The notes below the pieces were generated by a model. That model saw nothing but the letters and a program-made list of their open reading frames with translations. It was not told the DNA's origin and did no database searches. The position numbers and the translations under genes are program-made. A DNA stretch of 64,000 nt from Eledone cirrhosa (lineage: Eukaryota), in contig OZ024744.1 in NCBI GenBank assembly GCA_964016885.1, forward strand, positions 117,428,001 through 117,492,000, written 5' to 3'. Shown here one piece after another: positions 6,792-64,000 of this stretch. Position 1 is the stretch's first letter, and every line of letters begins with the position of its first letter.

Positions 6792-6812
6792 GTTGGTTAA
6801 AAGAGGAAGGAC

Positions 6813-8555: not shown

Positions 8556-8766
8556 TTCTATTAGTTTGCCGTAATAAATTTTTAACTGGAAAATTCGCCC
8601 CAAAAAGGGGCGAAAATAAATAAACTCAAAGTTTGACGACCAAGGCAAGGGGTTAACGTATATTACAGTATAAAAAAATTAATCAAAACTCACTTTTTGA
8701 GTAAGTAAATCCGACTCGGTAGCCGAGCTTGTTCACACACGTCAACACACGTCTCTCGTATACGAG

Positions 8767-9707
8767 ATGTTATGTGAGATATTATGTGAGGTAAAGCCTT
8801 TACTGTGAAAATACAATAGTATATATAGAGTAATGTAAATGTTATGTGAGGTATTATGTAAGGTAAAGCCTTTACTGTGAAAATACAATAGTATATATAG
8901 AGTAATATAAATGTTATGTGAGATATTATGTGAGGTAAAGCCTTTACTGTGAAAATACAATAGTATATATAGTGTAATGTAAATGTTATGTGAGATATTA
9001 TGTGAGGTAAAGCCTTTACTGTGAAAATATAATAGTATATATAGAGTAATGTAAATGTTATGTGAGATATTATGTGAGGTAAAGCCTTTACTGTGAAAAT
9101 ATAATAGTATATATAGAGTAATGTAAATGTTATGTGAGGTATTATGTGAGGTAAAGCCTTTACTGTGAAAATACAATAGTATATATAGTGTAATGTAAAT
9201 GTTATGTGAGATATTATGTGAGGTAAAGCCTTTACTGTGAAAATACAATAGTATATATAGAGTAATGTAAATGTTATGTGAGATATTATGTGAGGTAAAG
9301 CCTTTACTGTGAAAATATAATAGTATATATAGAGTAATGTAAATGTTATGTGAGGTATTATGTGAGGTAAAGCCTTTACTGTGAAAATACAATAGTATAT
9401 ATAGTGTAATGTAAATGTTATGTGAGGTAAAGACTCTACTGTGAAAATACAATAGTATATATAGAGTAATGTAAATGTTATGTGAGGTAAAGCCTTTACT
9501 GTGAAAATACAATAGTATATATAGAGTAATGTAAATGTTATGTGAGGTAAAGACTCTACTGTGAAAATACAATAGTATATATAGTGTAATGTAAATGTTA
9601 TGTGAGGTAAAGACTCTACTGTGAAAATACAATAGTATATATAGAGTAATGTAAATGTTATGTGAGGTAAAGACTCTACTGTGAAAATACAATAGTATAT
9701 ATAGAGT
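8767..9707. repeat. 60/72-bp satellite, block 2
   Basis: Same unit as block 1; 72- and 60-bp variants differ by a 12-bp indel. Confidence 0.95.
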
Positions 9708-11547: not shown

Positions 11548-12462
11548 TAGTATATATAGAGTAATGTAAATGTTATGTGAGGTAAAGCCCTTACTGGGAA
11601 AATATAATAGTATATATAGAGTAATGTAAATGTTATGTGAGGTATTATGTGAGGTAAAGTCTTTACTGTGAAAATACAATAGTATATATAGAGTAATGTA
11701 AATGTTATGTGAGATATTATGTGAGGTAAAGCCTTTACTGTGAAAATATAATAGTATATATAGAGTAATGTAAATGTTATGTGAGGTAAAGCCTTTACTG
11801 TGAAAATATAATATTATATATAGAGTAATGTAAATGTTATGTGAGGTAAAGCCTTTACTGTGAAAATACAATAGTATATATAGAGTAATGTAAATGTTAT
11901 GTGAGGTATTATGTGAGGTAAAGTCTTTACTGTGAAAATACAATAGTATATATAGAGTAATGTAAATGTTATGTGAGGTATTATGTGAGGTAAAGTCTTT
12001 ACTGTGAAAATACAATAGTATATATAGAGTAATGTAAATGTTATGTGAGATATTATGTGAGGTAAAGCCCTTACTGGGAAAATATAATAGTATATATAGA
12101 GTAATGTAAATGTTATGTGAGATATTATGTGAGGTAAAGCCATTACTGGGAAAATATAATAGTATATATAGAGTAATGTAAATGTTATGTGAGATATTAT
12201 GTGAGGTAAAGCCCTTACTGGGAAAATATAATAGTATATATAGAGTAATGTAAATGTTATGTGAGATATTATGTGAGGTAAAGCCTTTACTGTGAAAATA
12301 CAGTAGTATATATAGAGTAATGTAAATGTTATGTGAGGTATTATATGAGGTAAAGCCCTTACTGGGAAAATATAATAGTATATATAGAGTAATGTAAATG
12401 TTATGTGAGATATTATCTGAGGTAAAGCCCTTACTGGGAAAATATAATAGTATATATAGAGT
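11546..12462. repeat. 60/72-bp satellite, block 3
   Basis: Same unit, with CCCTTACTGGG variants. Confidence 0.95.
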
Positions 12463-12699
12463 GGTTTCTTTATTTGCCACTAGGGCACAAAAGGTAGGGA
12501 CAGATACAAGGGGGGAAGTTTACATATAATTAACGAGTACAAAAGTATAACAATGAAATAACAACAACAAACGAAGTCCTCAATAGGGAGGGGGCATTAA
12601 CATGTGTCGCACACACCCCGGAAAAAATGTGTAACCCTTCTCCTCAGGAGCACAAAGAGTAGGTGCTTCCCTCGTCTCCTCTTTTTCCTCTTCTTTCAC

Positions 12700-15600: not shown

Positions 15601-16137
15601 TCGATATCTATCGGCCAGGTCAAATCGGCCGATTAACCTTTTGAGGCTTTTACACCCCCCTCTATTGGCACATGCCCCTACATAGTCCCAACGTGCATCC
15701 AGGATACCATTCCAGTCCCCCACTAAAAGCAAGGAGCGGGACGTTCCCAGAAAAGTTTCCAGACGTTGGAAGTATTCCGGCCGCGCTGCCCAAAAAGGGG
15801 CGTACACAGCTATTAGTCTAAGGGCTCCACTTTCACTACTGCCGACGTCTAAAACCACCAGTCGACCCTCCGGGTCCAGGTGCACCTTCTGTATGGCGAG
15901 GCCCAGGTGTTTTCGCAGCAGAACGACAACTCCACCCCCACCCCCCGGTTGACAGAGAGATGCGAAGATCTCAAAGTCGTCGAAGAGGGGCGCCAGTTGG
16001 TGCTCGCTGCTGATCCTGGACTCGCAAATAGCCATTACATCCATTCTATGCGACCTGAGATCGTTTAAAAGTTTGCCTTGTTTCCAAGACAGTCCCAGGC
16101 CACGTACATTCAGACACCCAACTCTTATATCAGCCAT
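12700..16137 (-). pseudogene. Tx1 ORF2 (APE-RT-zf), ~1145 codons, one premature stop at 13447
   Basis: 896-aa ORF continues in frame after a TGA where copies 1 and 2 read W. Confidence 0.92.
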
Positions 16138-16158
16138 GTTGGTTAAAAGAGTAAGGAC

Positions 16159-17889
16159 CTACCTGTTCGGCTCCTGAGGAGCAGGTTGCACAATATCCAT
16201 GGGCGTATTGGAGGGGTTGTTTGGTGGGGTGTTGTTCTGTGGTGGAGTGGGGGTGTTTGGTGAGGTGTGGGTGGGGAAACGTTTCAAGAGGACGCGGTTA
16301 TAGGGTCGAGTACATGTTTTCCCCACGTCCTCAGGAAAGTTCTCTCTTAGTTTTGCATAGGTGTCCATTGGGAGTCTTATCATTTTTAAATGCGGTTTGT
16401 TGGCCGCGCTTGCAAAGAATTGCCCTTCAGTTTCCACCAAAGGGTCTTTGTGTATTGTTTTTACTAGTTCTTTGTTATTTGTGTTAATGTATGTATACTG
16501 TTTTATTTGTGTTGTGTTTGTTTGTTGTTCTTGTGTGTGCTTACGTTTTGTTGTATGTGTTATGTTTTGGGGTGGGGCGGATTTTGTTTGTTCTGTTTGT
16601 TTTGTTTTTGTTGGTGGTTGTGTGTTTGTTTCGTTTATGTTCGAGTGGTGCTTTCTTTTTTTCCTTTTTACAGGTTGGAAGGGTTCCCCCTCTTCGTCAC
16701 TAGGTGCCGTTTCCGCTGGGTCTTCGTCCGTGCTGTCGGGTAGTGGTGTATTTTGGGGTTTTGTTGTATTTGTGTGTGTTTTGGGAGTTGTTTTGGGTGG
16801 GGCCGTGTCTTGTGTTATTTTTCCCTGTTGTTTTTGTTGTTGTTGTGGTGGTGGTGGTGGAGGTGGTGGTGGTGGTGGTGGTGTGTGGGGTGTAGGCAAA
16901 AGAGCTTTTTTTTTTGTCAATTGAGGACAAGCAGCCCTTAGATGACCCCTGCTTGAACAGTAGTAACATATGGGCCTCCTACCCTCGGCTGAAATATATA
17001 TAAATGTTTCTCCATCGAGGGACACCCTCTGTGGTATTCTAGCTATTCGTTCTGGTCTCATTTGGACCAGAACCTCCACGCTCAAACCGCCGAAAACGTC
17101 TGTGGTGACTTCTCCTACTGAGAGGATTCCGTCCTCGTCTTCTAAAAATCCTGTTAGTACCCAGGAAATGCATGCATTTGGCCGGATTCCGGAGACCCTT
17201 ATCTTCTGCGTTCTTTTCCCTAAATATGTGGGGAAAAATGTATGTAGCTTGGAAACAATTGGTGCCACAGAGTATTTCCTGGCCGTCAATTGATCCTTCA
17301 TTAGGACCGTTATATTCCCATAGAGTGGCCCTTTTTGTATGAACGATATATCACTCCACACATTTTTTAGGACCAGCTCAATCTCTTTTTGGGATAATTG
17401 AGTTGGTTTCCTTGTTATGTTGGAAATTGTTCTGAAAGATATCGTTCTTAGCGTCGTATCTCTTTTGATTTCTTGTGGGGAGGTGATTGTGAAGTCTCCT
17501 CCTTCTTTGAAAGTTACATACTGTTTCGCTTCCTTCATCTTTTCTCTCAGAGTTGTAATGTCCAGTTGCTTGCAGGTTTGTGTTTTCCGGACCGCCTGTG
17601 CAAAGGAGGCACCAGTAGTGGGTTCGCTTTGTTTGGTGTTATCGTTATTTTTTCCTTGGTTGGTGTTGTGACTATTGCTGTTATTGTCGTTGTTGTTTTT
17701 GTCTGCGTTTATGTGACTTTCTGGGTTTTCACCCATTTTTACAAATTTTTCTTTTAATTCCGTGTTCCATGTTTCTTTTGCAGAAGTCAGGAGGGAAGAC
17801 TTAGAGCCTTGTGCTTCTAGCTTCTCTGTATCACATTTCTTAGGGGGCGTGGCTTTCACGTTAGGATGAGATGTGAAAATTCCGTCCAT
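16159..17889 (-). CDS. Tx1 ORF1 (CCHC zinc knuckle protein)
   Basis: Near-identical to copy 1 ORF1, with a shorter poly-Pro run. Confidence 0.85.
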   Translation of the reverse strand: MDGIFTSHPNVKATPPKKCDTEKLEAQGSKSSLLTSAKETWNTELKEKFVKMGENPESHINADKNNNDNNSNSHNTNQGKNNDNTKQSEPTTGASFAQAVRKTQTCKQLDITTLREKMKEAKQYVTFKEGGDFTITSPQEIKRDTTLRTISFRTISNITRKPTQLSQKEIELVLKNVWSDISFIQKGPLYGNITVLMKDQLTARKYSVAPIVSKLHTFFPTYLGKRTQKIRVSGIRPNACISWVLTGFLEDEDGILSVGEVTTDVFGGLSVEVLVQMRPERIARIPQRVSLDGETFIYISAEGRRPICYYCSSRGHLRAACPQLTKKKALLPTPHTPPPPPPPPPPPPQQQQKQQGKITQDTAPPKTTPKTHTNTTKPQNTPLPDSTDEDPAETAPSDEEGEPFQPVKRKKRKHHSNINETNTQPPTKTKQTEQTKSAPPQNITHTTKRKHTQEQQTNTTQIKQYTYINTNNKELVKTIHKDPLVETEGQFFASAANKPHLKMIRLPMDTYAKLRENFPEDVGKTCTRPYNRVLLKRFPTHTSPNTPTPPQNNTPPNNPSNTPMDIVQPAPQEPNR

Positions 17890-46684: not shown

Positions 46685-47310
46685 GTGTTAGACTAGGATG
46701 TGTGTTTTGTTCTTGAACAAAACACTTCATTTCACATTACTCCAGTATACTACAGTGGAGGTATGTAGTGGCCTAGTGGTAAGGGTGTTAGACTAGGATG
46801 TGTGTTTTGTTCTTGAACAAAACACTTCATTTCACATTACTCCAGTATACTACAGTGGAGGTATGTAGTGGCCTAGTGGTAAGGGTGTTAGACTAGGATG
46901 TGTGTTTTGTTCTTGAACAAAACACTTCATTTCACATTACTCCAGTATACTACAGTGGAGGTATGTAGTGGCCTAGTGGTAAGGGTGTTAGACTAGGATG
47001 TGTGTTTTGTTCTTGAACAAAACACTTCATTTCACATTACTCCAGTATACTAGTGGAGGTATGTAGTGGCCTAGTGGTAAGGGTGTTAGACTAGGATGTG
47101 TGTTTTGTTCTTGAACAAAACACTTCATTTCACATTACTCCAGTATACTACAGTGGAGGTATGTAGTGGCCTAGTGGTAAGGGTGTTAGACTGGGTTGTG
47201 TGTTTTGTTCTTGAACAAAACACTTCATTTCACATTACTCCAGTATACTACAGTGGAGGTATGTGGTTGCCTAGAGGTAAGGGTGTTAGACTGGGTTGTG
47301 TGTTGTGTTC
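46685..47310 (+). repeat. 100-bp tandem array derived from a tRNA-SINE head (A box kept, B box lost)
   Basis: GACTAGGATG at 46691, 46791, 46891 and 46991; the unit has GTGGCCTAGTGGTAAGG and CTTGAACAAAACACTTCATTTCACATT, homologous to SINE 27516. Confidence 0.85.
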
Positions 47311-48009
47311 GTAAAATGTAAGTTTCCTTGTTGGATTGCTTATTGACATAGACGTGAGGGAAGGTCCCTCTTCTATTTACCATCTTTGTATTTACAATAT
47401 TCCTTTCGTCATATCATCAATTCCAGCAGCATGGTGTATAAATGTTATTGAGACACGAGTAACATAATAATGACTTCAACAGCAGACATTAGAGATGAAA
47501 TGTATGTTTATTTTGTTGTAGCACAAATAATTGTTTCTACTTTAGGCACAAGGCCAGCAATAACCCAGTGCATTACTGCTACTTTATTTTATCGACCCCG
47601 TAAGGATGAAAGGCAAAGTCAACCTCGGCGGGATTTGAACTTAGATCGTAAAGGGACGTAACTATGCTGCAAAGCATGGCGTCCGACCCTCTACCGATAC
47701 TGCCAATCCACAGCATAATGTTGGTCAACTTGCATAGCTGAAGTTACACATAAAAATGAGGTTACAAAAGGGAATGTGCAATTGTGCCGGAAAGCCGGCA
47801 GGCTAAGGTGCAAAATCTCACCGTCACATGTTGTACGTGTTGCTGGTTCGAAGTTCCTGGTGCGAGAGAGTTATTCTTCAAATCTTTTCGGGTAATTTCT
47901 CCCTCAGGGCGCATAGGGATACATCCTCTTCTACTGGCACTGATTGGCTGAGCTGAGCCAAATCACGCACAGAGAATGTATATGAGCCCGCGGAATGTAG
48001 GTCACTACA
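47311..48009 (-). repeat. 3' LTR of the minus-strand element (contains a SINE insertion)
   Basis: Starts TGTAGTGACC right after the PPT, has AGCCAATCAG (CCAAT-like), and ends in sequence shared with 57339-57419. Confidence 0.68.
47530..47710 (-). mobile_element. tRNA-derived SINE inserted in the LTR
   Basis: Near-identical to 34398-34582. Confidence 0.85.
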
Positions 48010-48856
48010 ATACCCCTCTTCTAGACGGAAGTCGATACGGATTATTGAATCAGCAAGAACAAATGCTGAAAGAGCACATCAGTTTAAAAAAAATAATTGA
48101 GCAGAAGGCTGCATGCAAGAAAAAAAATGAGGCACTACGGGCCGTGTTGAGCCGCTGTGTCAAATGACTAGCTGTTTTGTAGTTTATGCCTGACCACCAA
48201 AGGTCTAACAAAAACGGATAAAGTCTGACATGGGCGAAGTTGCTGTTCTTGCATTAAATGTTAATGGTAAGTGTTGTACCAGTAGCTGTGGACGAAGCTA
48301 TTATGGTAGTTTACCAGTGCTGGCAAGAAGATGATGGGTAGGCGAGAAAATGTTGGCCTCCCAGATGTATTGCCGAATGTGCTAGGGAGCCAGGAAAAAA
48401 TGGCTGGTTGCTTTGAAAAGAAAAAAAAAGCAAGATTAATCTGGAGGTGGGTTGCAGTGTATATTCCATAATTCGGGCGAATCCACAGAAGTGGTGGAAA
48501 GGGATCTCGCAGAATATTACGTTTGAAGAACATGTACCAAGAACAACACGTTGGTGTGTGACAAAGAAGTGTGTGCATATGCAAGCATGCAAAACAGCAA
48601 AGAATGTGAATGAACAAAAACCATGAGCAAGCAAATAGCAAAAGAGCACAAAACAGGTAAATGCATTCTACAAAGAAATATGTGAATGTAACAAACTGAT
48701 AATTCAAAGTGAATATAAGGGAGCAGAGAAATTAATGATCAATGATAAGTTCAAAGTTTTTCAAAGTCAAATAGTTCACACATCACCAGTGTACAGACTT
48801 TCTGACACTAGTTCTATCTGAAAACTGAAAAAGAAGTTTGTTAATGCCACTCGGGG

Positions 48857-48925
48857 TTAGATGTATATTGTTTTTGAGAGTTTTCGTGGCCATACTACTG
48901 TCCTGCCACCTCGTGTGACAAAAGG
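48857..48925 (-). pseudogene. Gypsy Pol/integrase extreme C-terminal remnant (repeated in each unit)
   Basis: PFVTRGGRTVVWPRKLSKTIYI* aligns with TTTCSGRTVHWPRKLCSNIN* at 62210-62272, the end of the + strand Gypsy pol. Confidence 0.72.
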
Positions 48926-49085
48926 TTGTGTTGCTTGTTGTTAAAGCAAAGTCAATGAATCTTCTGTAGAGTCGCAGTCGAGCGTTGAAGAACCCAGAGT
49001 CACCAATATGGCAGCCACGTCTGACGACATAATAGTGAGAAAGCTAATGTCTTAATTTCTCGAGTCCTTGTGGTAACGAGACAGA

Positions 49086-49820
49086 ATGTCTGATTTAACC
49101 AGTTCTACCATATGGGCTGTGACAGCTGCAGGTCGCGGGAAAATAAAATTCAGTTTTTTGAGCAAGACTACCAAGGAATTCGATATTTTAAGTGACACTT
49201 CCTTCCAACCCCAGAAAAGAACCATATTCTCAGGAGGGGATATAAATGCTTCATATACTTTTATAAATACCAAATCCAATACCCAAGAGATATTACCCAA
49301 GCATCTTCTTCACCTCATGGTTAGGTACTGCCAGAAATATTTGGTGTTTGACATCAACGATGATTTGCGAAAGTATGATTTTCTTAACCAGAAGAGTTCT
49401 GTAAGTCCAGCCGATTTTTTTACGATCAATGAGGACTCCAGCTTCCCGACTCCGACAGCAGCCGATTCCACACCCAATCAACACCACGGCTTACCTCTGT
49501 ACATCGTAACATTGTATAAAGTAGAGAACGCAGGCATGAGCCTAGAAGTAGGAGAATATAAGCAGAGTATAGTCAAAAGTTTCAATAATGACAGGATGAC
49601 CCATCCATATCGACACACACATGACATGCTCACAAACGGATCATTAAGCCACATTGTTAAAAATGATCAGATTTTTCAGATCATGGCCGCAATGGACTAC
49701 TTTCTGTTCTATTATAAGGAGCACGAGCTGTCTTTACTGAGAGGCACAGTCTTAACGAGATATGAAGGTATGCATATAGTTACCACAGAGAATGTAGGTC
49801 ACTACAATACCCCCTCCTAG
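49086..49820 (+). CDS. Endogenous rhabdovirus-like nucleoprotein (N), N-terminal ~235 aa, copy 1
   Basis: LPLYIVTLYKV...EYKQSI...NDQIFQIMAAMDYFLFYYKEHELSLLRGTVLTRY versus VSV N as recalled, LPLYLLGLYRV...EYRKKL...NDSNYTKIVAAVDMFFHMFKKHECASFRYGTIVSRF; similar distance from the start Met. Confidence 0.82.
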   Translation: MSDLTSSTIWAVTAAGRGKIKFSFLSKTTKEFDILSDTSFQPQKRTIFSGGDINASYTFINTKSNTQEILPKHLLHLMVRYCQKYLVFDINDDLRKYDFLNQKSSVSPADFFTINEDSSFPTPTAADSTPNQHHGLPLYIVTLYKVENAGMSLEVGEYKQSIVKSFNNDRMTHPYRHTHDMLTNGSLSHIVKNDQIFQIMAAMDYFLFYYKEHELSLLRGTVLTRYEGMHIVTTENVGHYNTPS

Positions 49821-50881
49821 ACAGAAGTCGATACGGATTATCGAATCAGCAAGAACAAATGCTGAAAGAGCACATCAGTTTAAAAATAATAATTGAGCAG
49901 AAGGCTGCATGCAAGAAGAAAAATGATGCGCTAAGGGCCGTGTTGAGCGGCTGTGTCAAATGACTAGCTGTTTTGTAGTTTATACGTGACCACCAAAGGT
50001 CTAACAAAAACGGATAAAGTCTGATATGGGCGAAGTTGCTGTTCTTGCATTAAATGTTAATGGTAAGTGTTGTACCAGTAGCTGTGGACGAAGCTATTAT
50101 GGTAGTTTACCAGTGCTGGCAAGAAGATGATGGGTAGGCGAGAAAATGTTGGCCTCCCAGATGTATTGCCGAATGTGCTAGGGAGCCAGGAAAAAATGGC
50201 TGGTTGCTTTGAAAAGAAAAAAAAAGCAAGTTTAATCTGTAGGTGGGTTGCAGTGTAAATTCCATAATTCGGGCAAATCCACAGAAGTGGTGGAAAGGGA
50301 TCTCGCAGAATATTACGTTTGAAGAACATGTACTAAGAACAACACTTTGGTGTGTGACAAAGAAATGTGTGCATATGCAAGTATGCAAAACAGCAAAGAA
50401 TGTGAATGAACAAAAACCATGAGCAAGCAAATAACAAAAGAGCCCAAAACAAGTAAATGCATTCTACAAAGAAATATGTGAATGTAACATACTGATAATT
50501 CAAAGTGAATATAAGGGAGCAGAGAAATTAATGATCAATGATAAGTTCAAAGTTTTTCAAAGTCAAATAGTTCACACATCACCAGTGTACAGACTTTCTG
50601 ACACTAGTTCTATCTGAAAACTGAAAAAGAAGTTTGTTAATGCCACTAGGGGTTAGATGTATATTGTTTTTGAGAGTTTTCGTGGCCATTCTACCGTCCT
50701 GCCACCTCGTGTGACAAAAGGTTGTGTTGCTTGTTGTTAAAGCAAAGTCAATGAATCTTCTGTAGAGTCGCAGTCGAGCGTTGAAGAACCCAGAGTCACC
50801 AATATGGCAGCCACGTCTGACGACATAATAGTGAGAAAGCTAATGTCTTAATTTCTCGAGTCCATGTGGTAACGAGACAGA

Positions 50882-51616
50882 ATGTCTGATTTAACCAGTT
50901 CTACCATATGGGCTGTGACAGCTGCAGGTCGCGGGAAAATAAAATTCAGTTTTTTGAGCAAGACTACCAAGGAATTCGATATTTTAAGTGACACTTCCTT
51001 CCAACCCCAGAAAAGAACCATATTCTCAGGAGGGGATATAAATGCTTCATATACTTTTATAAATACCAAATCCAATACCCAAGAGATATTACCCAAGCAT
51101 CTTCTTCACCTCATGGTTAGGTACTGCCAGAAATATTTGGTGTTTGACATCAACGATGATTTGCGAAAGTATGATTTTCTTAACCAGAAGAGTTCTGTAA
51201 GTCCAGCCGATTTTTTTACGATCAATGAGGACTCCAGCTTCCCGACTCCGACAGCAGCCGATTCCACACCCAATCAACACCACGGCTTACCTCTGTACAT
51301 CGTAACATTGTATAAAGTAGAGAACGCAGGCATGAGCCTAGAAGTAGGAGAATATAAGCAGAGTATAGTCAAAAGTTTCAATAATGACAGGATGACCCAT
51401 CCATATCGACACACACATGACATGCTCACAAACGGATCATTAAGCCACATTGTTAAAAATGATCAGATTTTTCAGATCATGGCCGCAATGGACTACTTTC
51501 TGTTCTATTATAAGGAGCACGAGCTGTCTTTACTGAGAGGCACAGTCTTAACGAGATATGAAGGTATGCATATAGTTACCACAGAGAATGTAGGTCACTA
51601 CAATACCCCCTCCTAG
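50882..51616 (+). CDS. Endogenous rhabdovirus-like nucleoprotein fragment, copy 2
   Basis: Same 244-aa translation as copy 1. Confidence 0.82.
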   Translation: MSDLTSSTIWAVTAAGRGKIKFSFLSKTTKEFDILSDTSFQPQKRTIFSGGDINASYTFINTKSNTQEILPKHLLHLMVRYCQKYLVFDINDDLRKYDFLNQKSSVSPADFFTINEDSSFPTPTAADSTPNQHHGLPLYIVTLYKVENAGMSLEVGEYKQSIVKSFNNDRMTHPYRHTHDMLTNGSLSHIVKNDQIFQIMAAMDYFLFYYKEHELSLLRGTVLTRYEGMHIVTTENVGHYNTPS

Positions 51617-52677
51617 ACAGAAGTCGATACGGATTATCGAATCAGCAAGAACAAATGCTGAAAGAGCACATCAGTTTAAAAATAATAATTGAGCAGAAGG
51701 CTGCATGCAAGAAGAAAAATGATGCGCTAAGGGCCGTGTTGAGCGGCTGTGTCAAATGACTAGCTGTTTTGTAGTTTATACGTGACCACCAAAGGTCTAA
51801 CAAAAACGGATAAAGTCTGATATGGGCGAAGTTGCTGTTCTTGCATTAAATGTTAATGGTAAGTGTTGTACCAGTAGCTGTGGACGAAGCTATTATGGTA
51901 GTTTACCAGTGCTGGCAAGAAGATGATGGGTAGGCGAGAAAATGTTGGCCTCCCAGATGTATTGCCGAATGTGCTAGGGAGCCAGGAAAAAATGGCTGGT
52001 TGCTTTGAAAAGAAAAAAAAAGCAAGTTTAATCTGTAGGTGGGTTGCAGTGTAAATTCCATAATTCGGGCAAATCCACAGAAGTGGTGGAAAGGGATCTC
52101 GCAGAATATTACGTTTGAAGAACATGTACTAAGAACAACACTTTGGTGTGTGACAAAGAAATGTGTGCATATGCAAGTATGCAAAACAGCAAAGAATGTG
52201 AATGAACAAAAACCATGAGCAAGCAAATAACAAAAGAGCCCAAAACAAGTAAATGCATTCTACAAAGAAATATGTGAATGTAACAAACTGATAATTCAAA
52301 GTGAATATAAGGGAGCAGAGAAATTAATGATCAATGATAAGTTCAAAGTTTTTCAAAGTCAAATAGTTCACACATCACCAGTGTACAGACTTTCTGACAC
52401 TAGTTCTATCTGAAAACTGAAAAAGAAGTTTGTTAATGCCACTAGGGGTTAGATGTATATTGTTTTTGAGAGTTTTCGTGGCCATTCTACCGTCCTGCCA
52501 CCTCGTGTGACAAAAGGTTGTGTTGCTTGTTGTTAAAGCAAAGTCAATGAATCTTCTGTAGAGTCGCAGTCGAGCGTTGAAGAACCCAGAGTCACCAATA
52601 TGGCAGCCACGTCTGACGACATAATAGTGAGAAAGCTAATGTCTTAATTTCTCGAGTCCTTGTGGTAACGAGACAGA

Positions 52678-53412
52678 ATGTCTGATTTAACCAGTTCTAC
52701 CATATGGGCTGTGACAGCTGCAGGTCGCGGGAAAATAAAATTCAGTTTTTTGAGCAAGACTACCAAGGAATTCGATATTTTAAGTGACACTTCCTTCCAA
52801 CCCCAGAAAAGAACCATATTCTCAGGAGGGGATATAAATGCTTCATATACTTTTATAAATACCAAATCCAATACCCAAGAGATATTACCCAAGCATCTTC
52901 TTCACCTCATGGTTAGGTACTGCCAGAAATATTTGGTGTTTGACATCAACGATGATTTGCGAAAGTATGATTTTCTTAACCAGAAGAGTTCTGTAAGTCC
53001 AGCCGATTTTTTTACGATCAATGAGGACTCCAGCTTCCCGACTCCGACAGCAGCCGATTCCACACCCAATCAACACCACGGCTTACCTCTGTACATCGTA
53101 ACATTGTATAAAGTAGAGAACGCAGGCATGAGCCTAGAAGTAGGAGAATATAAGCAGAGTATAGTCAAAAGTTTCAATAATGACAGGATGACCCATCCAT
53201 ATCGACACACACATGACATGCTCACAAACGGATCATTAAGCCACATTGTTAAAAATGATCAGATTTTTCAGATCATGGCCGCAATGGACTACTTTCTGTT
53301 CTATTATAAGGAGCACGAGCTGTCTTTACTGAGAGGCACAGTCTTAACGAGATATGAAGGTATGCATATAGTTACCACAGAGAATGTAGGTCACTACAAT
53401 ACCCCCTCCTAG
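52678..53412 (+). CDS. Endogenous rhabdovirus-like nucleoprotein fragment, copy 3
   Basis: Same 244-aa translation as copy 1. Confidence 0.82.
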   Translation: MSDLTSSTIWAVTAAGRGKIKFSFLSKTTKEFDILSDTSFQPQKRTIFSGGDINASYTFINTKSNTQEILPKHLLHLMVRYCQKYLVFDINDDLRKYDFLNQKSSVSPADFFTINEDSSFPTPTAADSTPNQHHGLPLYIVTLYKVENAGMSLEVGEYKQSIVKSFNNDRMTHPYRHTHDMLTNGSLSHIVKNDQIFQIMAAMDYFLFYYKEHELSLLRGTVLTRYEGMHIVTTENVGHYNTPS

Positions 53413-54473
53413 ACAGAAGTCGATACGGATTATCGAATCAGCAAGAACAAATGCTGAAAGAGCACATCAGTTTAAAAATAATAATTGAGCAGAAGGCTGC
53501 ATGCAAGAAGAAAAATGATGCGCTAAGGGCCGTGTTGAGCGGCTGTGTCAAATGACTAGCTGTTTTGTAGTTTATACGTGACCACCAAAGGTCTAACAAA
53601 AACGGATAAAGTCTGATATGGGCGAAGTTGCTGTTCTTGCATTAAATGTTAATGGTAAGTGTTGTACCAGTAGCTGTGGACGAAGCTATTATGGTAGTTT
53701 ACCAGTGCTGGCAAGAAGATGATGGGTAGGCGAGAAAATGTTGGCCTCCCAGATGTATTGCCGAATGTGCTAGGGAGCCAGGAAAAAATGGCTGGTTGCT
53801 TTGAAAAGAAAAAAAAAGCAAGTTTAATCTGTAGGTGGGTTGCAGTGTAAATTCCATAATTCGGGCAAATCCACAGAAGTGGTGGAAAGGGATCTCGCAG
53901 AATATTACGTTTGAAGAACATGTACTAAGAACAACACTTTGGTGTGTGACAAAGAAATGTGTGCATATGCAAGTATGCAAAACAGCAAAGAATGTGAATG
54001 AACAAAAACCATGAGCAAGCAAATAACAAAAGAGCCCAAAACAAGTAAATGCATTCTACAAAGAAATATGTGAATGTAACAAACTGATAATTCAAAGTGA
54101 ATATAAGGGAGCAGAGAAATTAATGATCAATGATAAGTTCAAAGTTTTTCAAAGTCAAATAGTTCACACATCACCAGTGTACAGACTTTCTGACACTAGT
54201 TCTATCTGAAAACTGAAAAAGAAGTTTGTTAATGCCACTAGGGGTTAGATGTATATTGTTTTTGAGAGTTTTCGTGGCCATTCTACCGTCCTGCCACCTC
54301 GTGTGACAAAAGGTTGTGTTGCTTGTTGTTAAAGCAAAGTCAATGAATCTTCTGTAGAGTCGCAGTCGAGCGTTGAAGAACCCAGAGTCACCAATATGGC
54401 AGCCACGTCTGACGACATAATAGTGAGAAAGCTAATGTCTTAATTTCTCGAGTCCTTGTGGTAACGAGACAGA

Positions 54474-55208
54474 ATGTCTGATTTAACCAGTTCTACCATA
54501 TGGGCTGTGACAGCTGCAGGTCGCGGGAAAATAAAATTCAGTTTTTTGAGCAAGACTACCAAGGAATTCGATATTTTAAGTGACACTTCCTTCCAACCCC
54601 AGAAAAGAACCATATTCTCAGGAGGGGATATAAATGCTTCATATACTTTTATAAATACCAAATCCAATACCCAAGAGATATTACCCAAGCATCTTCTTCA
54701 CCTCATGGTTAGGTACTGCCAGAAATATTTGGTGTTTGACATCAACGATGATTTGCGAAAGTATGATTTTCTTAACCAGAAGAGTTCTGTAAGTCCAGCC
54801 GATTTTTTTACGATCAATGAGGACTCCAGCTTCCCGACTCCGACAGCAGCCGATTCCACACCCAATCAACACCACGGCTTACCTCTGTACATCGTAACAT
54901 TGTATAAAGTAGAGAATGCAGGCATGAGCCTAGAAGTAGGAGAATATAAGCAGAGTATAGTCAAAAGTTTCAATAATGACAGGATGACCCATCCATATCG
55001 ACACACACATGACATGCTCACAAACGGATCATTAAGCCACATTGTTAAAAATGATCAGATTTTTCAGATCATGGCCGCAATGGACTACTTTCTGTTCTAT
55101 TATAAGGAGCACGAGCTGTCTTTACTGAGAGGCACAGTCTTAACGAGATATGAAGGTATGCATATAGTTACCACAGAGAATGTAGGTCACTACAATACCC
55201 CCTCCTAG
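54474..55208 (+). CDS. Endogenous rhabdovirus-like nucleoprotein fragment, copy 4
   Basis: Same 244-aa translation as copy 1. Confidence 0.82.
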   Translation: MSDLTSSTIWAVTAAGRGKIKFSFLSKTTKEFDILSDTSFQPQKRTIFSGGDINASYTFINTKSNTQEILPKHLLHLMVRYCQKYLVFDINDDLRKYDFLNQKSSVSPADFFTINEDSSFPTPTAADSTPNQHHGLPLYIVTLYKVENAGMSLEVGEYKQSIVKSFNNDRMTHPYRHTHDMLTNGSLSHIVKNDQIFQIMAAMDYFLFYYKEHELSLLRGTVLTRYEGMHIVTTENVGHYNTPS

Positions 55209-56269
55209 ACAGAAGTCGATACGGATTATCGAATCAGCAAGAACAAATGCTGAAAGAGCACATCAGTTTAAAAATAATAATTGAGCAGAAGGCTGCATGC
55301 AAGAAGAAAAATGATGCGCTAAGGGCCGTGTTGAGCGGCTGTGTCAAATGACTAGCTGTTTTGTAGTTTATACGTGACCACCAAAGGTCTAACAAAAACG
55401 GATAAAGTCTGATATGGGCGAAGTTGCTGTTCTTGCATTAAATGTTAATGGTAAGTGTTGTACCAGTAGCTGTGGACGAAGCTATTATGGTAGTTTACCA
55501 GTGCTGGCAAGAAGATGATGGGTAGGCGAGAAAATGTTGGCCTCCCAGATGTATTGCCGAATGTGCTAGGGAGCCAGGAAAAAATGGCTGGTTGCTTTGA
55601 AAAGAAAAAAAAAGCAAGTTTAATCTGTAGGTGGGTTGCAGTGTAAATTCCATAATTCGGGCAAATCCACAGAAGTGGTGGAAAGGGATCTCGCAGAATA
55701 TTACGTTTGAAGAACATGTACTAAGAACAACACTTTGGTGTGTGACAAAGAAATGTGTGCATATGCAAGTATGCAAAACAGCAAAGAATGTGAATGAACA
55801 AAAACCATGAGCAAGCAAATAACAAAAGAGCCCAAAACAAGTAAATGCATTCTACAAAGAAATATGTGAATGTAACAAACTGATAATTCAAAGTGAATAT
55901 AAGGGAGCAGAGAAATTAATGATCAATGATAAGTTCAAAGTTTTTCAAAGTCAAATAGTTCACACATCACCAGTGTACAGACTTTCTGACACTAGTTCTA
56001 TCTGAAAACTGAAAAAGAAGTTTGTTAATGCCACTAGGGGTTAGATGTATATTGTTTTTGAGAGTTTTCGTGGCCATTCTACTGTCCTGCCACCTCGTGT
56101 GACAAAAGGTTGTGTTGCTTGTTGTTAAAGCAAAGTCAATGAATCTTCTGTAGAGTCGCAGTCGAGCGTTGAAGAACCCAGAGTCACCAATATGGCAGCC
56201 ACGTCTGACGACATAATAGTGAGAAAGCTAATGTCTTAATTTCTCGAGACCTTGTGGTAACGAGACAGA

Positions 56270-57055
56270 ATGTCTGATTTAACCAGTTCTACCATATGGG
56301 CTGTGACAGCTGCAGGTCGCGAGAAAATAGAATTCCGTTTGAGCAAGACTACCAAGGAATTCGATATTTTAAGTGACACTTCCTTCCAACCCCAGAAAAT
56401 AACCATATTCTCAGGAGGGGATATAAATGCTTCATATACTTTTATAAATACCAAATCCAATACCCAAGAGATATTACCCAAGCATCGTCTTCACCTCATG
56501 GTTAGGTACTGCCAGAAATATTTGGTGTTTGACATCAACGATGATTTGCGAAAGTATGATTTTCTTAACCAGAAGAGTTCTGTAAGTCCAGCCGATTTCT
56601 TCACGATCAATGAAGACACCAGCTTCCCGACTCCGACAGCAGCTGATTCCACACCCAATCAACACCACGGCTTACCTCTGTACATCGTAACATTGTATAA
56701 AGTAGAGAACGCAGGCATGAGCCTAGAAGTAGGAGAATATAAGCAGAGTATAGTCAAAAGTTTCAATAATGACAGGATGACCCATCCATATCGACACACA
56801 CATGACATGCTCACAAACGGATCATTAAGCCACATTGTTAAAAATGATCAGATTTTTCAGATCATGGCCGCAATGGATTATTTTTTATTCCATTATAAGG
56901 AGCACGAGCTGTCTTTACTGAGGAGAGGCACAGTCTTAACGCGATATGAAGGTATGCATATAGTTACCAGTGTGGTTTTGGGGTTTTTTTTTTTTGGTTT
57001 TTTTATAACGGTAGAGACGATAGAAGAGGTGAAGGCGTGGAAGTCAACAATATGA
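56270..57055 (+). CDS. Endogenous rhabdovirus-like nucleoprotein fragment, divergent copy 5
   Basis: Keeps the full RxGT spacing (LLRRGTVLTRY) and FLFHYKEHE; C-terminal extension differs from copies 1-4. Confidence 0.82.
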   Translation: MSDLTSSTIWAVTAAGREKIEFRLSKTTKEFDILSDTSFQPQKITIFSGGDINASYTFINTKSNTQEILPKHRLHLMVRYCQKYLVFDINDDLRKYDFLNQKSSVSPADFFTINEDTSFPTPTAADSTPNQHHGLPLYIVTLYKVENAGMSLEVGEYKQSIVKSFNNDRMTHPYRHTHDMLTNGSLSHIVKNDQIFQIMAAMDYFLFHYKEHELSLLRRGTVLTRYEGMHIVTSVVLGFFFFGFFITVETIEEVKAWKSTI

Positions 57056-57325
57056 TGTGTGGTGGTTGCGTCGGTAAGGCTATGAAGCTGCCATCTCACT
57101 ATTCCCTGTTGTTGGTTAGTGGTTAAACAATGTTGTCGCTGCTGCTGCTGCTGCTGCTGCCGTTGTTGTTGTTGTTGATTGTAGACAGGACCTGTCGCTA
57201 GCCATTTTGTAATTTCCTCGTGGCGAAAAGTTTTTGAAATACTGCTAATTTTTTTTTAAATTTTAAAAGGAATATTTTGTATTTTCGTAAATTGCACTGA
57301 ACAAAAAGGCTGCGTAAAATTCTTA

Positions 57326-57337
57326 CGTCGGTCACCA
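57326..57337 (-). promoter_or_regulatory. Primer-binding site of the minus-strand LTR element
   Basis: TGGTGACCGACG begins 1 nt after the LTR-terminal CA. Confidence 0.7.
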
Positions 57338-57338
57338 G

Positions 57339-57419
57339 TGTGGTAAAATGTATGTATGTATCATAATTGGATTGCTTATTGACATAGACGTGAGGGAAGG
57401 TCCCTCGTCTATTTACTAT
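57339..57419 (-). repeat. Remnant of the 5' LTR (U5 end), cut off by the + strand Gypsy
   Basis: Homologous to 47311-47383; abuts the TG of the next element's LTR. Confidence 0.68.
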
Positions 57420-58245
57420 TGTAGTGGCTGAGATGGTCGCTTGGCAACTAGCAGTTGCCTCCCCTTAACAACCCTTCAGAGAGCGGAGGTAAAAATACAT
57501 CCGGACACAGACGCAGGTTCACTCACTCTCTTTGGACCGCAGACATGAACAGACGTGGAAAGATTCGCTCCTCAAAATATTGACGTTGTAGGAAATTTAC
57601 TAAATTATCGCATTTAATAAAATGATTATTAGATTTGATTGTTCATTTATTTATTCAACAAAGAGAAACATCCCTTTCCTTTATCAACCCTGACGATAAA
57701 GAATGAAAACGTAGCCTATTTGAATTCGCCATTCGTTTTAACGGCAATGTGGAATGGCTTAACATTTGGAATGTTCGAATCACTTAGCGTAAGTCCATAA
57801 AATTCATAATATTCCATTTGTTGAAGCACGCATACAGACAAACACAAAAATACAACACAAAAAAAAATAATTAAAAAAAAAAAAAGGATTTCTCTGGATA
57901 TAGAATTTTGCTTTCAACATTATGTGGAAATTACAAATGGAGACTCAGATATTTTGTTTTCCCGCGTTCAGCTTGTCTTCTCCAACCCAGCCATCTGATT
58001 GGCTGCATCGTGCCACATGACGGCTTCTTCATCACGGACACATTTTTAAATCAGCCATCTTGGATTTTCTTACCATTAATTTTCATAGAAAATGATTTTT
58101 TTTATTATTAAAATTTTCTTTAGAATATTTTTTTTAAAGAAAAAAAATTAGTATTTCAAAACGGCTACCACCAATTACCAGCAATCAGCAGCAACACAAG
58201 GCTAACTATTGACCAACACCAAAAAGTCATCAAATACGTGGCACC

Positions 58246-59037
58246 ATGAGTCAACATCATTTGCCGTCCTTCGCAGGCGACATCAAGTTGTGGTTTGCGC
58301 AGCTGGAATGTTTCTTCGAATTGACGAAGACAAAGGAACAGCATAAGCTGAAGGTCCTGATCAATGGCCTACCTGTTTCCTTGGCATTCTCGGTGAAGGA
58401 CGTTTTGACGGATTTAGACGCCGACGTTACCTACGGCTCATTAAAGAACGAAATTCTTCGCAGAAATACCAAGTCGGTAGAGAGCCGTTTTCAGGAGTTG
58501 TTGGAGGATGCTCAAATGGGTGACAGGAAGCCGAGCTCCTATTTGCGACATTTGCGGGAGTTGAGCGACTCCCAGGGGATTGACACCCCCTTCATAAAGC
58601 AGCTTTTTTTTTTCACGTCTACCACCAAGTGCGCAAAGGATATTGGTCAATAGTTTAGAGAAGGATTCATTAGAGCAACTTGCCGCGTCCGCGGATAAGA
58701 TACTTGAGGTGGACTCGAACAGCAGTCAGCATAATCCTTATGTGGCTTCAGCTTCCCCCCCCCCCCCCCACGCAGTTCTTCTGTGGCCGACAGCAAACTG
58801 TTGGAGTTGATTGAAGCTCTCACCAAAAAGGTAGAAGATTTGACGGTACATCACAGAGAGCCTTCTCAACGTTTGAGGTACCGTTCGCCGCCGTCCTCTA
58901 TTCATCGCCAGTACTACAACGCAGACAACAATAATTCTTCGTTGTGTTGGTACCATGCTAACTTCGGCAATAGGGCACAACGTTGTCGCACGCCCTGTAA
59001 TTACAAGAAATCGGGAAACGCAAAGCAGAGCCACTAG
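58246..59037 (+). pseudogene. Gypsy gag, frameshifted at homopolymer runs
   Basis: LWFAQLE, MGDRKPSSYLRHLREL, CWYHANFGNRAQRCRTPC. Confidence 0.85.
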
Positions 59038-59079
59038 GGGCGGCTAGTGAACTCTGGGAAAACCGACCGAACCACCATC

Positions 59080-62000
59080 TTTTCGTATACGACCTGCGGT
59101 CAAAAAAATGTTTCCTTGTCGATACTGGCGCGTCGCTGAGTATTTGGCTAGTCAGTTATCTCAAAAAAAGCCCAGCTGAATCAAATATAAATCTACGAGC
59201 AGTCAACCACACGGCCATTCGAACGTACGGGCAAATTTCGCTTCCTCTTCGGTTAAAAAATTTGCAGCGTGATTTGAGGTGGAAGTTTACTATCGCCGAC
59301 TTGCCATACGCCATTTCGGGAGCGGATTTTCTCCACCATTTTTCCTTGTTGGTGGACATTCGCAGACAACGCTTTTTGATGCTAAAACAGGCCTTTCTTT
59401 CGAGGATTCAGAGCCGGATGTCGCCACTGTCAGCCCTTCCTTTTTCTTGGCTGAAGTGGGCAACCAGTATCAAAGCCTGCTACATTCATTCCCTCAGTTG
59501 ACGCAGGGAAAGTTACGAATAACTAGCCCGGATCATGCGATTGAACACTTCATATCCACTACAGGTCCACCTGTTTTCTCACGTCCTCGAAGATTATCTA
59601 CAGAGAAGTTGAAAGCTGCACGTCTTGAATTCGACCACATGCTGGAATTGGGAATAATTCGGCGCTCCACAAGTCCTTGGGCATCGCCTCTACATATGGT
59701 ACCTAGATCTTCTGGGGATTGGAGACCGACGGGTGACTACCGACGCTTAAACGCGATTACTGTGCCTGACCGTTATCCAATCCCGCATTTGCAGGATTTT
59801 GCATCGTCATTGCAGGGTTGCAGAATCTTTTCTAAGCTTGATTTGATCCGCGCTTATAATCAAATTCCGGTTAACAAGGAGGATATCCCAAAGAGTGCTA
59901 TTGCCACTCCTTTCGGATCATTCGAGTTCCTCACTATGCCTTTCGGCCTTAGAAATGCTGCAAGTACCTTCCAACGATTTATGGATGATGTTACTCGGGG
60001 CCTGGATTTTGTGTACACGTATATCGATGACGTGTTGATTGCTAGTTCTTCCCCTCAGCAGCATTCAAAGCATCTGGATCTCGTATTTCGTCGTTTACAG
60101 AGATATAATTGTTTCTACTTTTAGCACAAGGCCAGCAATTATTCTAGTGTATTACTGGTACTTTATTTTATCGACCCGTTAAGGATGAAAGGCAAAGTTA
60201 ACCTCGGCGGGTCTTGAACTCAGTCCGTAAACAGAGATATAATGTTCGTATTAATGCTTCCAAGTGTGTTTTCGGCTCGACTTCACTAACATTTTTAGGC
60301 CATCTGATTGACGCTGATGGTATTCGACCTCTTCCTGAGAAGGTTAAGGCAGTATCGGGTTTGCCTCCGCCAAGTTCACTGCGACAATTGCGTCAATTCC
60401 TGGGCCTTGTACATTTTTATAGGCGATTCGTACCTGGTTGTTCCAAATTGCTGTTCTCGTTGACAGAGATTTTTAAGGGTTGCCGGCGTAAGAATATGGA
60501 CATTTCCTTAAATAAAACGCAGCTTGATGATTTTAAAAAAGTGAAAAAGGCGTTAGCGAACGCGTCTTTGCTCGCCCACCCAGTACCCAACGCCGAGCTA
60601 TCGCTCTGTGTTGATGCTTCGGATAGCGCCGTGGGCGCAGTCTTACAGCAGAAGTGTGATGGGGTACAGCAACCACTCGAGTTCTTTTCGAGGAAGTTAA
60701 AGCCTGCCGAAACTCGCTATAGCACCTTTGGAAGGGAGCTATTAGCAATTTATTTATCAGTGAAACATTTTGCTCATGTACTTGAAGGTAGAACATTCAC
60801 CATTTTCACTGATCATAAACCTTTGACGTTTGCTCTTCGAACTAAAGCAGTCAAATACTCGCCCAGAGAAACGAGACATCTGGACTTCATCTCACAGTTC
60901 ACGAACGACATTCAACATATTCCGGGTTCTTTGAATACAGCGGCCGATGCGCTGTCTCGCCTGCCGATCGCATCGATTTCGTCTTCCGAGGAGATAGATT
61001 TACATCGAATGGCAGCTGCCCAACCCACTCTCGAATCGTTGGATGTTACATCGCCAGAGTTTGTACATTGCAAACTGAAATACATTCCGATCTCAACTGC
61101 TGACGGACAAATACTGTGTGAGGTTTCGTTGGACTCACCACGACCTCTAGTCCCAGTGGAACATCGACGAACTGCGTTTCTCGCTTTACATGGCATTTCT
61201 CACCCAGGAGTATCAGCCTCAGTAAAACTCATAACAGCCAGATTTTTCTGGCCTGGTATGAGACGTGACATTGCTGCTTGGTGTCGTTCCTGTGTCGCTT
61301 GCCAACAAGCGAAAGTTCATAGACATGTTAAGGCTCCTCTCGGAACCTTCACCTGCCCCGATGCAAGATTTCGTCACATTCATGTGGACATCGTCGGCCC
61401 GTGGCCGGTTAGTCGTGGTTTTTCGTATCTTTTGACGATTGTTGACCGTTTTTCGCGTTGGCCTGAAGCCGTCCCTATAACAGATATCACCGCCGAAACC
61501 ACAGCCCGTACCCTCGTATCTTCGTGGATCGCTCGTTTCGGTGTACCAACCACCATAACAACGGATCGTGGTCGTCAATTTGAGTCTAACCTCTTCCGAG
61601 AGCTAACCCAAATCCTGGGGGCTACTCGAATAAGAACCACGGCTTACCACCCAGCCTCAAACGGAATGGTGGAAAGATTCCACAGGCAGCTCAAAGCCTC
61701 CGTAAGGGCTTCCATGGACTCTTCACGTTGGAGTTGTATTGTTGGGTATTCGGTCGACGGTAAAGGTGGACCTTGGGTTCTCCTCTGCCGAATTAGTTTA
61801 TGGTACGCCTCTGGCGTTACTGGGGCAAATGCTGGCCCCTTTTGACCTGACTTCGCAGGACCCCGCTTCCTACGTGTCCCGGCTTCACTCTTATTTCAAG
61901 GATCTACCACCGATGGGCACTAGGAAGCAGACTAAAAACTGCCGTCCCAAGGGATATTGCCTTGTGGACCCATGTGTTCGTTAGAGACGACGCCGTGAGA

Positions 62001-62272
62001 CCCCCTCTTCAACGGCCGTACTCTGGACCCTATCGTGTGCTTGCTCGCACAGACAAACATTTCACACTGGACATTCGGGGTTCCAGGGAAACGGTTTCCA
62101 TTGATCGTCTCAAACGAGCAAACCTGGACAATGACACTTGAAACTCAAATGCCCCCCTCTTTTTCTTTGCCACACAGGCCTATTCCCCCCCCCCCCATTA
62201 ACACACAGAACTACGACCTGTTCTGGGCGAACGGTGCATTGGCCCCGTAAGCTATGCAGTAATATAAACTGA
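59080..62272 (+). pseudogene. Gypsy pol (protease, RT, RNase H, integrase), with frameshifts and a SINE insertion
   Basis: FLVDTGA; [26 protein letters not shown]; DASD, RELLAI, TDHKPL; HPG...[28 protein letters not shown]. Confidence 0.92.
60110..60230 (-). mobile_element. 5'-truncated SINE inserted in Gypsy RT with 13-bp TSD
   Basis: ACAGAGATATAAT at 60097-60109 and 60231-60243. Confidence 0.88.
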
Positions 62273-62987
62273 ATTATTATTTTTTTTTTTTGTTTTGTTT
62301 TTTTCCTTCCAATTGTTTTTGTTGTACATTGCATTTTGTTACTTTTGGATTCTTGACTGCCTACGGCAGTGTCAATATATTGTATTTTGCGTAACATTAC
62401 GACTGTTGTCAATTCTGACACAGACCTTTTTTTTTAGTGCATTTTTATAACTATGCTACATATGGCATTTTCATTGCCTAGCAAAACATTTTTTTTCTTG
62501 TTTATCGCATCTGGGGCCCCTTTATTGCGAAGAGTGTTATCTTTTCATGCATTTTGCATCTTTTACTGTACGTTTTTTTTTTTTTTTTTTCTGTGTTAAT
62601 GCTTGCAGACATGAACCTATTTATTATTTCTTTTTAATTTGTTGATACATTCTTCTACATTTTGTAAACTACCTTCGCTTCATTGTTAACGATTTTTCGA
62701 CAAAAAATCTGCTCCGAGGTGAATGTAGTGGCTGAGATGGTCGCTTGGCAACTAGCAGTTGCCTCCCCTTAACAACCCTTCAGGGAGCGGAGGCAAAAAT
62801 ACACCCGGACACAGCCACAGGTTCACTCACTCTTTTTGGACCACGGACATGAACAGACGTGGAAAGATCCGCTCCTCAAAATATTGACGTTGTAGGAAAT
62901 TTACTAAATTATTGCATTAAATAAAATGATTGTTAGACTTGATTGTGCATTTATTTATTCGACAAAGAGAAACATCCCTTTTCTTTA

Positions 62988-63353
62988 GAGGTATGTGGTG
63001 GCCTAGTGGTAACGATGTTAGACTGGGTTGTGTGTTGTGTTCTTGAACAAGACACTTCATTTCACATTACTACAGTATACTACTGTAGAGGTATATTGTG
63101 GCCTAGTGGTAAGGGTGTTAGACTGGGTTGTGTGTTGTGTTCTTGAACAAAACACTTCATTTCACATTACTACAGTATACTACATGGAGGTATGTGGGAC
63201 CTAATGGTAAGGGTGTTAGACTGGGTTGTGTGTTGTGTTCTTGAACTAAACACCTCATTTCACATTACTCCAGTATACTACAGTGGAGGTATGTGGTGGC
63301 CTAGTGGTAAGGGTGTTAGACTGAGTTGTGTGTTGTGTTCTTGAACAAAACAC
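62988..63353 (+). repeat. SINE-head-derived ~100-bp tandem array (same family as 46685-47310)
   Basis: Same unit and orientation. Confidence 0.85.
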
Positions 63354-64000
63354 TAGAGAGGGTGGTTAAGGAACCTGGCAAGGATGGGGCCATGATCAAC
63401 TTGGATCAATCCAAAGCATTCGATAGGGTCGACCATCGGTACCTGGCGGCGGTCCTCGGGGCAGCCGGTTTCGAGCCCGTTTTCAGGGGTTGGCTCGCAG
63501 CAATGTACAGCGACATCTGCTCAGTTGTGTGGGTGAACGGTCACCTGTCGCAGCCGTTCAGCATCATGCGCTCAGTCCGCCAGGGTTGTCCCCTCTCGTC
63601 CCTCTTGTACGTATTGGCTCTCGAGCCGTTACTGCACAAACTGGGGGCGATGAGGGGCGTCCCACGCGAACTAGGATGCGGGAAATCCGAGTCGGCTTAC
63701 GCCGACGACGTCACCGTAGTGGTGTCGAGCACCAGGCACGTCCAGATGCTCGGCACCGCTCTCAAGGAATACGAAGCGGTGACAGGAGCAAAGATAAACC
63801 AGGAAAAGTCGGTGGGCTTGCAGCTCGGCACCTGGAGAGGCAAGTCCATGCCGTCCGACAGCGTCGTGGGGTGTTGGACGGACGGACCGGTTAAATTGCT
63901 TGGGGTCTGGTTCGGAGAAAAACTGGAACGAGGTGACGAGCAGGGTGGCCTCCCTCACCCAGAAATGGGCTGAGAGGAAGCTGTCCCTGAAAGGCCGGAC
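63354..64000 (+). mobile_element. Tx1-clade LINE, 5'-truncated RT fragment of a second subfamily, runs off the window
   Basis: INLDQSKAFDRVDHRYL, RQGCPLS, AYADD; similar to but clearly diverged from copies 1-3. Confidence 0.88.

Follow-up and report, generated by a model that had tools for sequence, protein, structure and literature searches.

In the genome of the octopod Eledone cirrhosa, a fragment of a rhabdovirus nucleoprotein (N) gene lies inside a host LTR retrotransposon and has been multiplied into five tandem copies, the fifth of which differs from the other four by a surplus of synonymous changes. These differences are best read as neutral decay combined with two or three short patches acquired, after capture, from another haplotype of the same virus, a reading that we hold to be evenly balanced between right and wrong. 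The finding is weak evidence for a domesticated viral protein. All coordinates refer to the window, i.e., the whole stretch of 64,000 nucleotides that was analysed (contig OZ024744.1, positions 117,428,001 to 117,492,000).

The open reading frame (ORF) corresponds to the first 232 codons, hence the N-terminal part, of a rhabdovirus nucleoprotein gene. Its protein matches the Rhabdoviridae nucleoprotein profile PF00945 with 40.6 and 33.5 bits (cut-off 26) over profile positions 94-217 of 410, and gives a weak match to VSV N (E 2e-4). It shares its start residue with a protein of Octopus bimaculoides, to which it is 39% identical over 232 aa. The viral part stops at codon 232; paralogous fragments extend about 180 aa further, and the C-terminal half is absent. 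The ORF is therefore shorter than the full two-lobed protein of about 410-450 aa, and the enclosure of RNA by a rhabdovirus nucleoprotein needs both lobes. An in-frame ATG located 26 codons before the ORF (49008, 56192) and followed by two stops could be taken as the start of a longer, broken gene; this reading was rejected because that stretch belongs to the host element, and the viral gene starts at the ATG of the ORF. A HMMER protein search with L006, a paralogous fragment from the same genome, returned 182 matches, the top four and one more being 43-60% identical. Among the 8 of 150 listed matches that were looked up, those named near the top are proteins of Octopus bimaculoides and Argonauta hians, and the nearest named viruses, Almendravirus arboretum and Yongjia tick virus 2, are 26-28% identical. 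The protein searches returned no live virus of this clade, and word-index protein searches gave no match in either length class. The virus belongs to an unsampled rhabdovirus lineage, known here from genomic fragments alone.

The viral sequence is joined to host chromosomal DNA, with host repeat on both sides. The 1.1 kb preceding each ORF belongs to a host repeat, for which 40 of 2635 candidates were scored, and the host copies L024 and L028 depart from the window sequence at the start codon, L024 rejoining it after 56965. L024 represents the empty site: the insert is enclosed by the LTRs of a single element equipped with a primer-binding site (57326-57337) and a polypurine tract (48010-48022, read directly from the sequence), where it replaced about 40 host bases of the element interior. 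Because both motifs are on the minus strand, the element itself is on the minus strand, and its RNA would carry the N fragment in antisense. The 3′ LTR of this non-autonomous element (47311-48009, minus strand), recognised from the LTR pairs of host copies L024, L027 and L028, starts with TG at 48009, while its left edge abuts a 100-bp satellite. A dispersed, SINE-like repeat of about 190 bp lies inside it (47526-47714) and occupies the same position in one LTR of L024; the LTR variant itself is therefore being copied. Beyond the insert, comparison with the host copies shows the internal region resuming on the minus strand (56966-57338), followed by a remnant of the 5′ LTR (57339-57419, minus strand) cut by the insertion of a separate Ty3/Gypsy element (57420-62987, plus strand). 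The latter, with LTRs at 57420-57683 and 62724-62987 that differ at 16 of 264 positions, carries gag-like, reverse transcriptase, RNase H and integrase sequences in broken frames; the frameshifts that the original prediction reported in the adjacent Gypsy ORFs are real, pol being split across frames. This Gypsy element is a later neighbour and not the capturing element. The bulk of the 5′ LTR and the normal end of the Gypsy right LTR are absent, which suggests a later deletion. Arrays of the 100-bp satellite (46685-47310 and 62988-63354) bracket the LTR element, the tandem array and the Gypsy element. Elsewhere in the window, positions 3354-17889 hold two to three near-identical non-LTR elements with a two-ORF layout, which we take to be of the L1/Tx1 type; each lies beside a 72-bp satellite, suggesting a target preference.

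The tandem array (47967-56969) is composed of five units of about 1796 bp, ending at 49785, 51581, 53377, 55173 and 56969, and each unit comprises the LTR edge, the polypurine tract, host internal region and the viral fragment. The N fragments all lie on the plus strand. Copies 1, 2 and 3 (49086-49781, 50882-51577 and 52678-53373) are identical, and copy 4 (54474-55169) carries one synonymous change; these four form type A, and the ORF of copy 1 continues past the tandem junction and ends with a stop at 49820. Copy 5 (56270-56965), or type B, runs for 232 codons from the viral start before its ORF enters host sequence and stops at 57055, the two types thus having different read-through tails. 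Unit 1 is distinct from units 2-5 only upstream (26 substitutions compared with unit 5), and unit 5 is distinct from units 1-4 almost only within the ORF, while units 2-4 differ from one another by 0-3 bases. This distribution points to an old copy A, retained as the upstream part and ORF of unit 1, and an old copy B, retained as those of unit 5, and the amplified unit appears to be a hybrid of the A-type ORF with the B-type upstream part. Such a hybrid fits an unequal crossing-over between the old tandem copies, probably 20-190 bases before the start codon, with multiplication later. Both host-virus junctions are common to A and B, hence there was one capture; the earlier proposal that two viral haplotypes had been captured falls with these junctions, which rule out separate captures for copy 1 and copy 5.

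As the ORFs of copies 1-4 differ by a single substitution and amount to one sequence, only two independent copies enter the comparison, and the test amounts to a single pairwise comparison of 16 changes, chosen post hoc. The codon alignment of copy 1 and copy 5 (231 pairs) contains 9 synonymous bases in 8 codons, 7 nonsynonymous bases, two one-codon (3-nt) indels and no stop, a tally identical to that of the original prediction. It corresponds to dN/dS values of 0.20, 0.24 and 0.29 at kappa 1, 2 and 4.4. The probability of at least 9 synonymous changes among 16 is 0.002-0.013 in a binomial test, 0.018 when the observed base changes are placed randomly in the ORF and 0.011-0.020 when the clusters are shifted as blocks; the excess over neutral expectation claimed at the outset is thus recovered, modestly beyond chance. 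The accompanying signs that had been invoked, the missing stops and the in-frame indels, carry little weight. A stop-free ORF has a probability of 0.48-0.60 under neutrality, meaning that the frame has not been kept longer than neutral decay allows, and 4 of 10 distinct indels in the alignment blocks of paralogous N fragments from the same genome are multiples of 3, three of these four coming from a comparison in which one copy is frameshifted as well.

The 16 difference sites of the ORF are clustered (P 0.001), as had been noticed for the synonymous changes, while the 26 sites of the flank are unclustered (P 0.09-0.12). Cluster 1 (56322-56337) comprises 3 nonsynonymous changes plus, within a T run, an indel of one codon; cluster 2 (56599-56644), 4 synonymous changes and 1 nonsynonymous change at a paralog-variable site; and cluster 3 (56878-56891), 5 changes in 14 bases, 4 of them synonymous and 1 nonsynonymous at a variable site. 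Synonymous and nonsynonymous changes number 0 and 5 in codons 1-109, as against 9 and 2 in the remaining codons (permutation P 0.019), and the split over codon positions is 6:3:7, without third-position dominance. Conservation was judged from a separate paralog comparison, because the residue table of the paralogs contains rows misaligned into host flank. On this basis, 4 of the 7 amino-acid differences place residues unusual for the family at conserved sites, two per lineage (residues 18, 44 and 23, 73), and these make up four of the five nonsynonymous changes in codons 1-109. At both indels, the amplified type also deviates by one codon from the length usual in the family.

The co-duplicated host flank serves as a neutral yardstick. 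It had been proposed to set the ORF against the non-coding divergence of unit 1 from units 2-5, and this comparison yields 16/693 (2.3%) for the ORF and 26/1093 (2.4%) for the flank (Fisher P 1.0). If the protein were under selection, dS should match the flank rate and dN should fall below it; import of viral sequence predicts dN at the flank rate and dS above it. At kappa 2, dS is 5.5% (9 changes seen for 3.9 expected at the flank rate, P 0.018) and dN is 1.3% (7 seen for 12.6 expected, P 0.067). The excess of dS over the flank rate has P 0.008-0.04 in Poisson and 0.014-0.085 in Fisher tests, and dN is marginally below that rate (P 0.05-0.09 and 0.14-0.26, respectively). In terms of lnL, the neutral model reaches -10.45, selection -8.52 and the extra-synonymous model -7.51, selection thereby standing 1.9 above neutral and 1.0 below extra-synonymous. 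Flank changes, polarised with five host copies, fall evenly on the branches (12 vs 13, 1 mixed); 4 of the 26 flank sites are split among these five copies, and the flank clock may itself be a patchwork.

These rates bear directly on the original proposal of purifying selection on the endogenous ORF, according to which the host would make a truncated nucleoprotein, for instance a dominant-negative decoy against the virus. A dN/dS well below 1, with dN about half the flank rate, is what such a protein would leave behind, the insert starts exactly at the viral start codon with both types open, type A has been amplified four times and is present in further samples, and a precedent for decoy proteins is described in yeast (PMC6166632). 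This reading nevertheless requires dS to sit at the flank rate, and it lies above it, with dN only marginally lower and total ORF divergence equal to that of the flank. The match to the nucleoprotein profile is partial, with the C-terminal half of the paralogs missing, and, relative to the promoter of the element, the ORF is in antisense; it also lacks the viral leader. Both lineages have accumulated atypical residues at conserved sites, the amplified type is the one that departs from family length, and the two types end in different tails. Selection on a host-made protein thus appears unlikely, and less likely than patches from a viral haplotype.

Chance is a somewhat more serious competitor, which we consider possible though on the improbable side. 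Both copies would have decayed neutrally with some multi-base mutation events, the synonymous surplus being a fluctuation of P~0.02 noticed post hoc. The equality of total ORF and flank divergence, the codon-position split and the unremarkable frame and indels all agree with this, and a change cluster also separates two non-coding LTR ends. However, the surplus keeps its significance with clusters left intact, and a second pair of copies described below departs from neutrality in the same direction.

The patch reading can be laid out as follows. While copying the RNA of the element, the reverse transcriptase of a helper element would have jumped to genomic-sense viral RNA close to the beginning of N, reverse-transcribed 696 viral bases and returned to element RNA, in a single capture followed by duplication to five units. 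The RNA of such a chimera would have the polarity of viral genomic RNA. If the chimera RNA were copied again while the animal was infected, short homology-guided excursions onto co-packaged viral RNA would then import patches of 15-45 bases, whose differences would already have been filtered by selection acting on the virus. This exchange between chimera RNA and viral RNA is deduced from the pattern of changes. The codon positions of the window pair count against it, as their split is unlike the 15:7:99 found between L006 and L010, where the third position dominates, as it does between viral haplotypes; dN below the flank rate and a margin of about 1 lnL are further limits. Recombination with a second viral haplotype, one of the options of the original prediction, is nevertheless the best supported of them, even though the donor of the patches was not found: the DNA search of the same genome returned the five window copies only.

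Other sources for the patches were examined. Conversion from a paralog in the assembly was set aside, as no paralog of this genome exceeds about 71% DNA identity and none agrees with either type over the full length of a cluster. For clusters 1 and 2 the window contains no local template, inverted or direct, and those for cluster 3 are AT-rich matches with 2-3 mismatches. A-to-I editing before reverse transcription was discarded on the grounds that changes go in both directions, and the flank is without such bias. Polarising the synonymous sites of the window with paralogs was abandoned, since synonymous sites among paralogs are saturated (pS 0.72-0.86).

The same genome contains 13 more N matches at 9 loci beyond the window, with 56-78% amino-acid identity and pairwise dN/dS of 0.07-0.33 among N loci, and several of these loci are inside LTR elements; many viral haplotypes have reached the germ line of Eledone cirrhosa. 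The N fragments L010 (G000:C2:55.9 Mb), in antisense, and L011/L016 (G000:C2:336.0 Mb), with L011 in sense, lie within Gypsy elements that resemble the Gypsy element of the window at 67-81% over the matched pieces. A search for the mononegaviral L gene gave 7 matches from 10 candidates, with fragments at L029/L030 (G000:C3:130.16 Mb), L031/L034 (C23) and L033 (C3) and one match on C27; the strongest contains internal stops, and its nearest solved structure is VSV L (E 7e-137).

Two further pairs of N fragments share their junctions. L006 (G000:C4) and L012, L014 (G000:C5) go back to a separate capture event, in which a related N gene entered the same host LTR family, likewise in antisense. L006 and L012 share both junctions on different contigs, therefore the chimeras were copied again after capture. 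L012 is frameshifted by a 16-nt deletion. The two differ by 17 synonymous and 14 nonsynonymous changes, with dS 6.3%, dN 1.7% and a flank at 11/567 = 1.9%; the extra-synonymous model (lnL -6.72) exceeds selection (-11.57) by 4.9, and neutrality is 7 units worse. This repeats the direction of the window pair more strongly and supports the patch reading. Among the 15 synonymous changes that could be polarised, where L010 and L011 are informative, 11 fall on L012, 3 on L006 and 1 is split. The synonymous changes of L012 are clustered (tightest P 0.003), six of them within 11 codons, and two codons are hit at two positions, yielding residues found in other family members. Such a pattern is what a short tract derived from a different viral haplotype would leave. 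The third pair, L008 (G000:C2) and L013, L017, L018 (G000:C219), sits beside an LTR piece of the same family and sets a limit on the patch reading, as it fits selection: L008 and L013 show 6 synonymous and 9 nonsynonymous changes, dS 2.4%, dN 1.1% and flank 2.7%, and selection (lnL -6.52) exceeds the extra-synonymous model (-9.64) by 3.1. L013 itself has three frameshifts, and its two flanks disagree (26/697 and 5/443). Summed over the three pairs, lnL is -34.0 for neutral, -26.6 for selection, -23.9 for extra-synonymous (2.7 above selection) and -19.6 with both free, which leaves room for a mixture of causes across pairs.

Other samples confirm that the insertion is real and common to several of them. 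Contigs of 2 samples contain the left host-virus junction, as do RAD reads from 2 out of 3 additional samples. The listing covers seven sequencing runs, none recorded as RNA. In 4 runs (2 samples, 1 study) the contigs carry the copy 1-4 type together with the tandem junction; in 3 RAD runs from a second study, the viral part is reached by 2, 0 and 1 reads, each of the copy 1-4 type. No new allele was gained from these contigs and runs. Within the ORF, the copy-5 type was not found in the contigs of the 4 runs, in which contig assembly would drop a minority variant. Its absence there, and that of the copy-5 right junction from all these contigs and reads, is what could be expected if copy 5 were an artefact of assembly or polishing. 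We consider this very improbable, since a variant present once in five is one that contig assembly drops, and since copy 5 shows, at two conserved residues and both indels, the state of the paralogs and of the O. bimaculoides protein, which errors would not produce; the even distribution of flank changes over both branches likewise argues against it. In addition, contigs of the runs X1 and X2 have the copy-5 letter at 56249. There it is joined to an ORF of the copy 1-4 type, which reflects a mixed assembly or else a crossover at another point in that sample.

If the locus has any present role, it would most likely be as a source of antisense RNA (piRNA), with which the orientation of the insert is compatible and for which no reading frame is needed. 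More broadly, it can be proposed, tentatively and with more doubt than confidence, that virus-retrotransposon chimeras in the octopod germ line keep recombining with circulating rhabdoviruses at reverse transcription, gaining patches of new strains. Such updating, if it occurs, would refresh an antisense immune memory, and would mimic purifying selection in dN/dS tests on endogenous viral elements (EVEs). Should the patch reading be correct, a dN/dS below 1 between copies of one insertion would not prove exaptation, and controlling dS and dN each against the co-duplicated flank would distinguish the cases. Whatever the origin of the patches, one genome holds a record of repeated germ-line capture of an unsampled rhabdovirus lineage, through the 9 further N loci and an L-gene fragment.

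The locus is a known kind of EVE in a new host group. In the accounts given for Aedes aegypti (bioRxiv 10.1101/127498; PMC8048955), rhabdovirus-derived EVEs lie in Ty3/gypsy elements, with a median EVE length of 620 bp, and the route accepted there is template switching involving LTR elements and viral RNA (citing Geuking 2009, Tassetto 2019). The octopod locus shares with them a nucleoprotein fragment of about 0.7 kb in an LTR element, a proposed template-switching origin, duplication after integration and an antisense orientation compatible with piRNA. Unlike those described there, it is found in a mollusc, which extends the mosquito-type LTR capture route beyond arthropods, and the capture is resolved to the base pair inside a recognisable non-autonomous element; moreover, the chimeras have transposed again, and junction-sharing copies differ by synonymous-rich patches. 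Crustacean EVEs are described as mostly independent insertions without element signatures (PMC4231630). In the literature searched, mainly abstracts to which supplements may add, there is no report of rhabdovirus EVEs in cephalopods, and abstracts of that literature likewise hold no report of an EVE re-templated by later viral strains. An ORF that is open from the viral start codon, together with a dN/dS below 1 in one comparison, recalls the exapted EBLN-1 (PMC2987831) and the decoy NIRV proteins (PMC6166632); one of these papers itself cautions that an intact EVE ORF may mean a recent insertion. As those cases are presented there, the octopod fragment stands apart from them in being truncated, young (about 2.4% between its oldest copies), antisense to its carrier and known from sequence alone, and in having a dS that exceeds its neutral yardstick.
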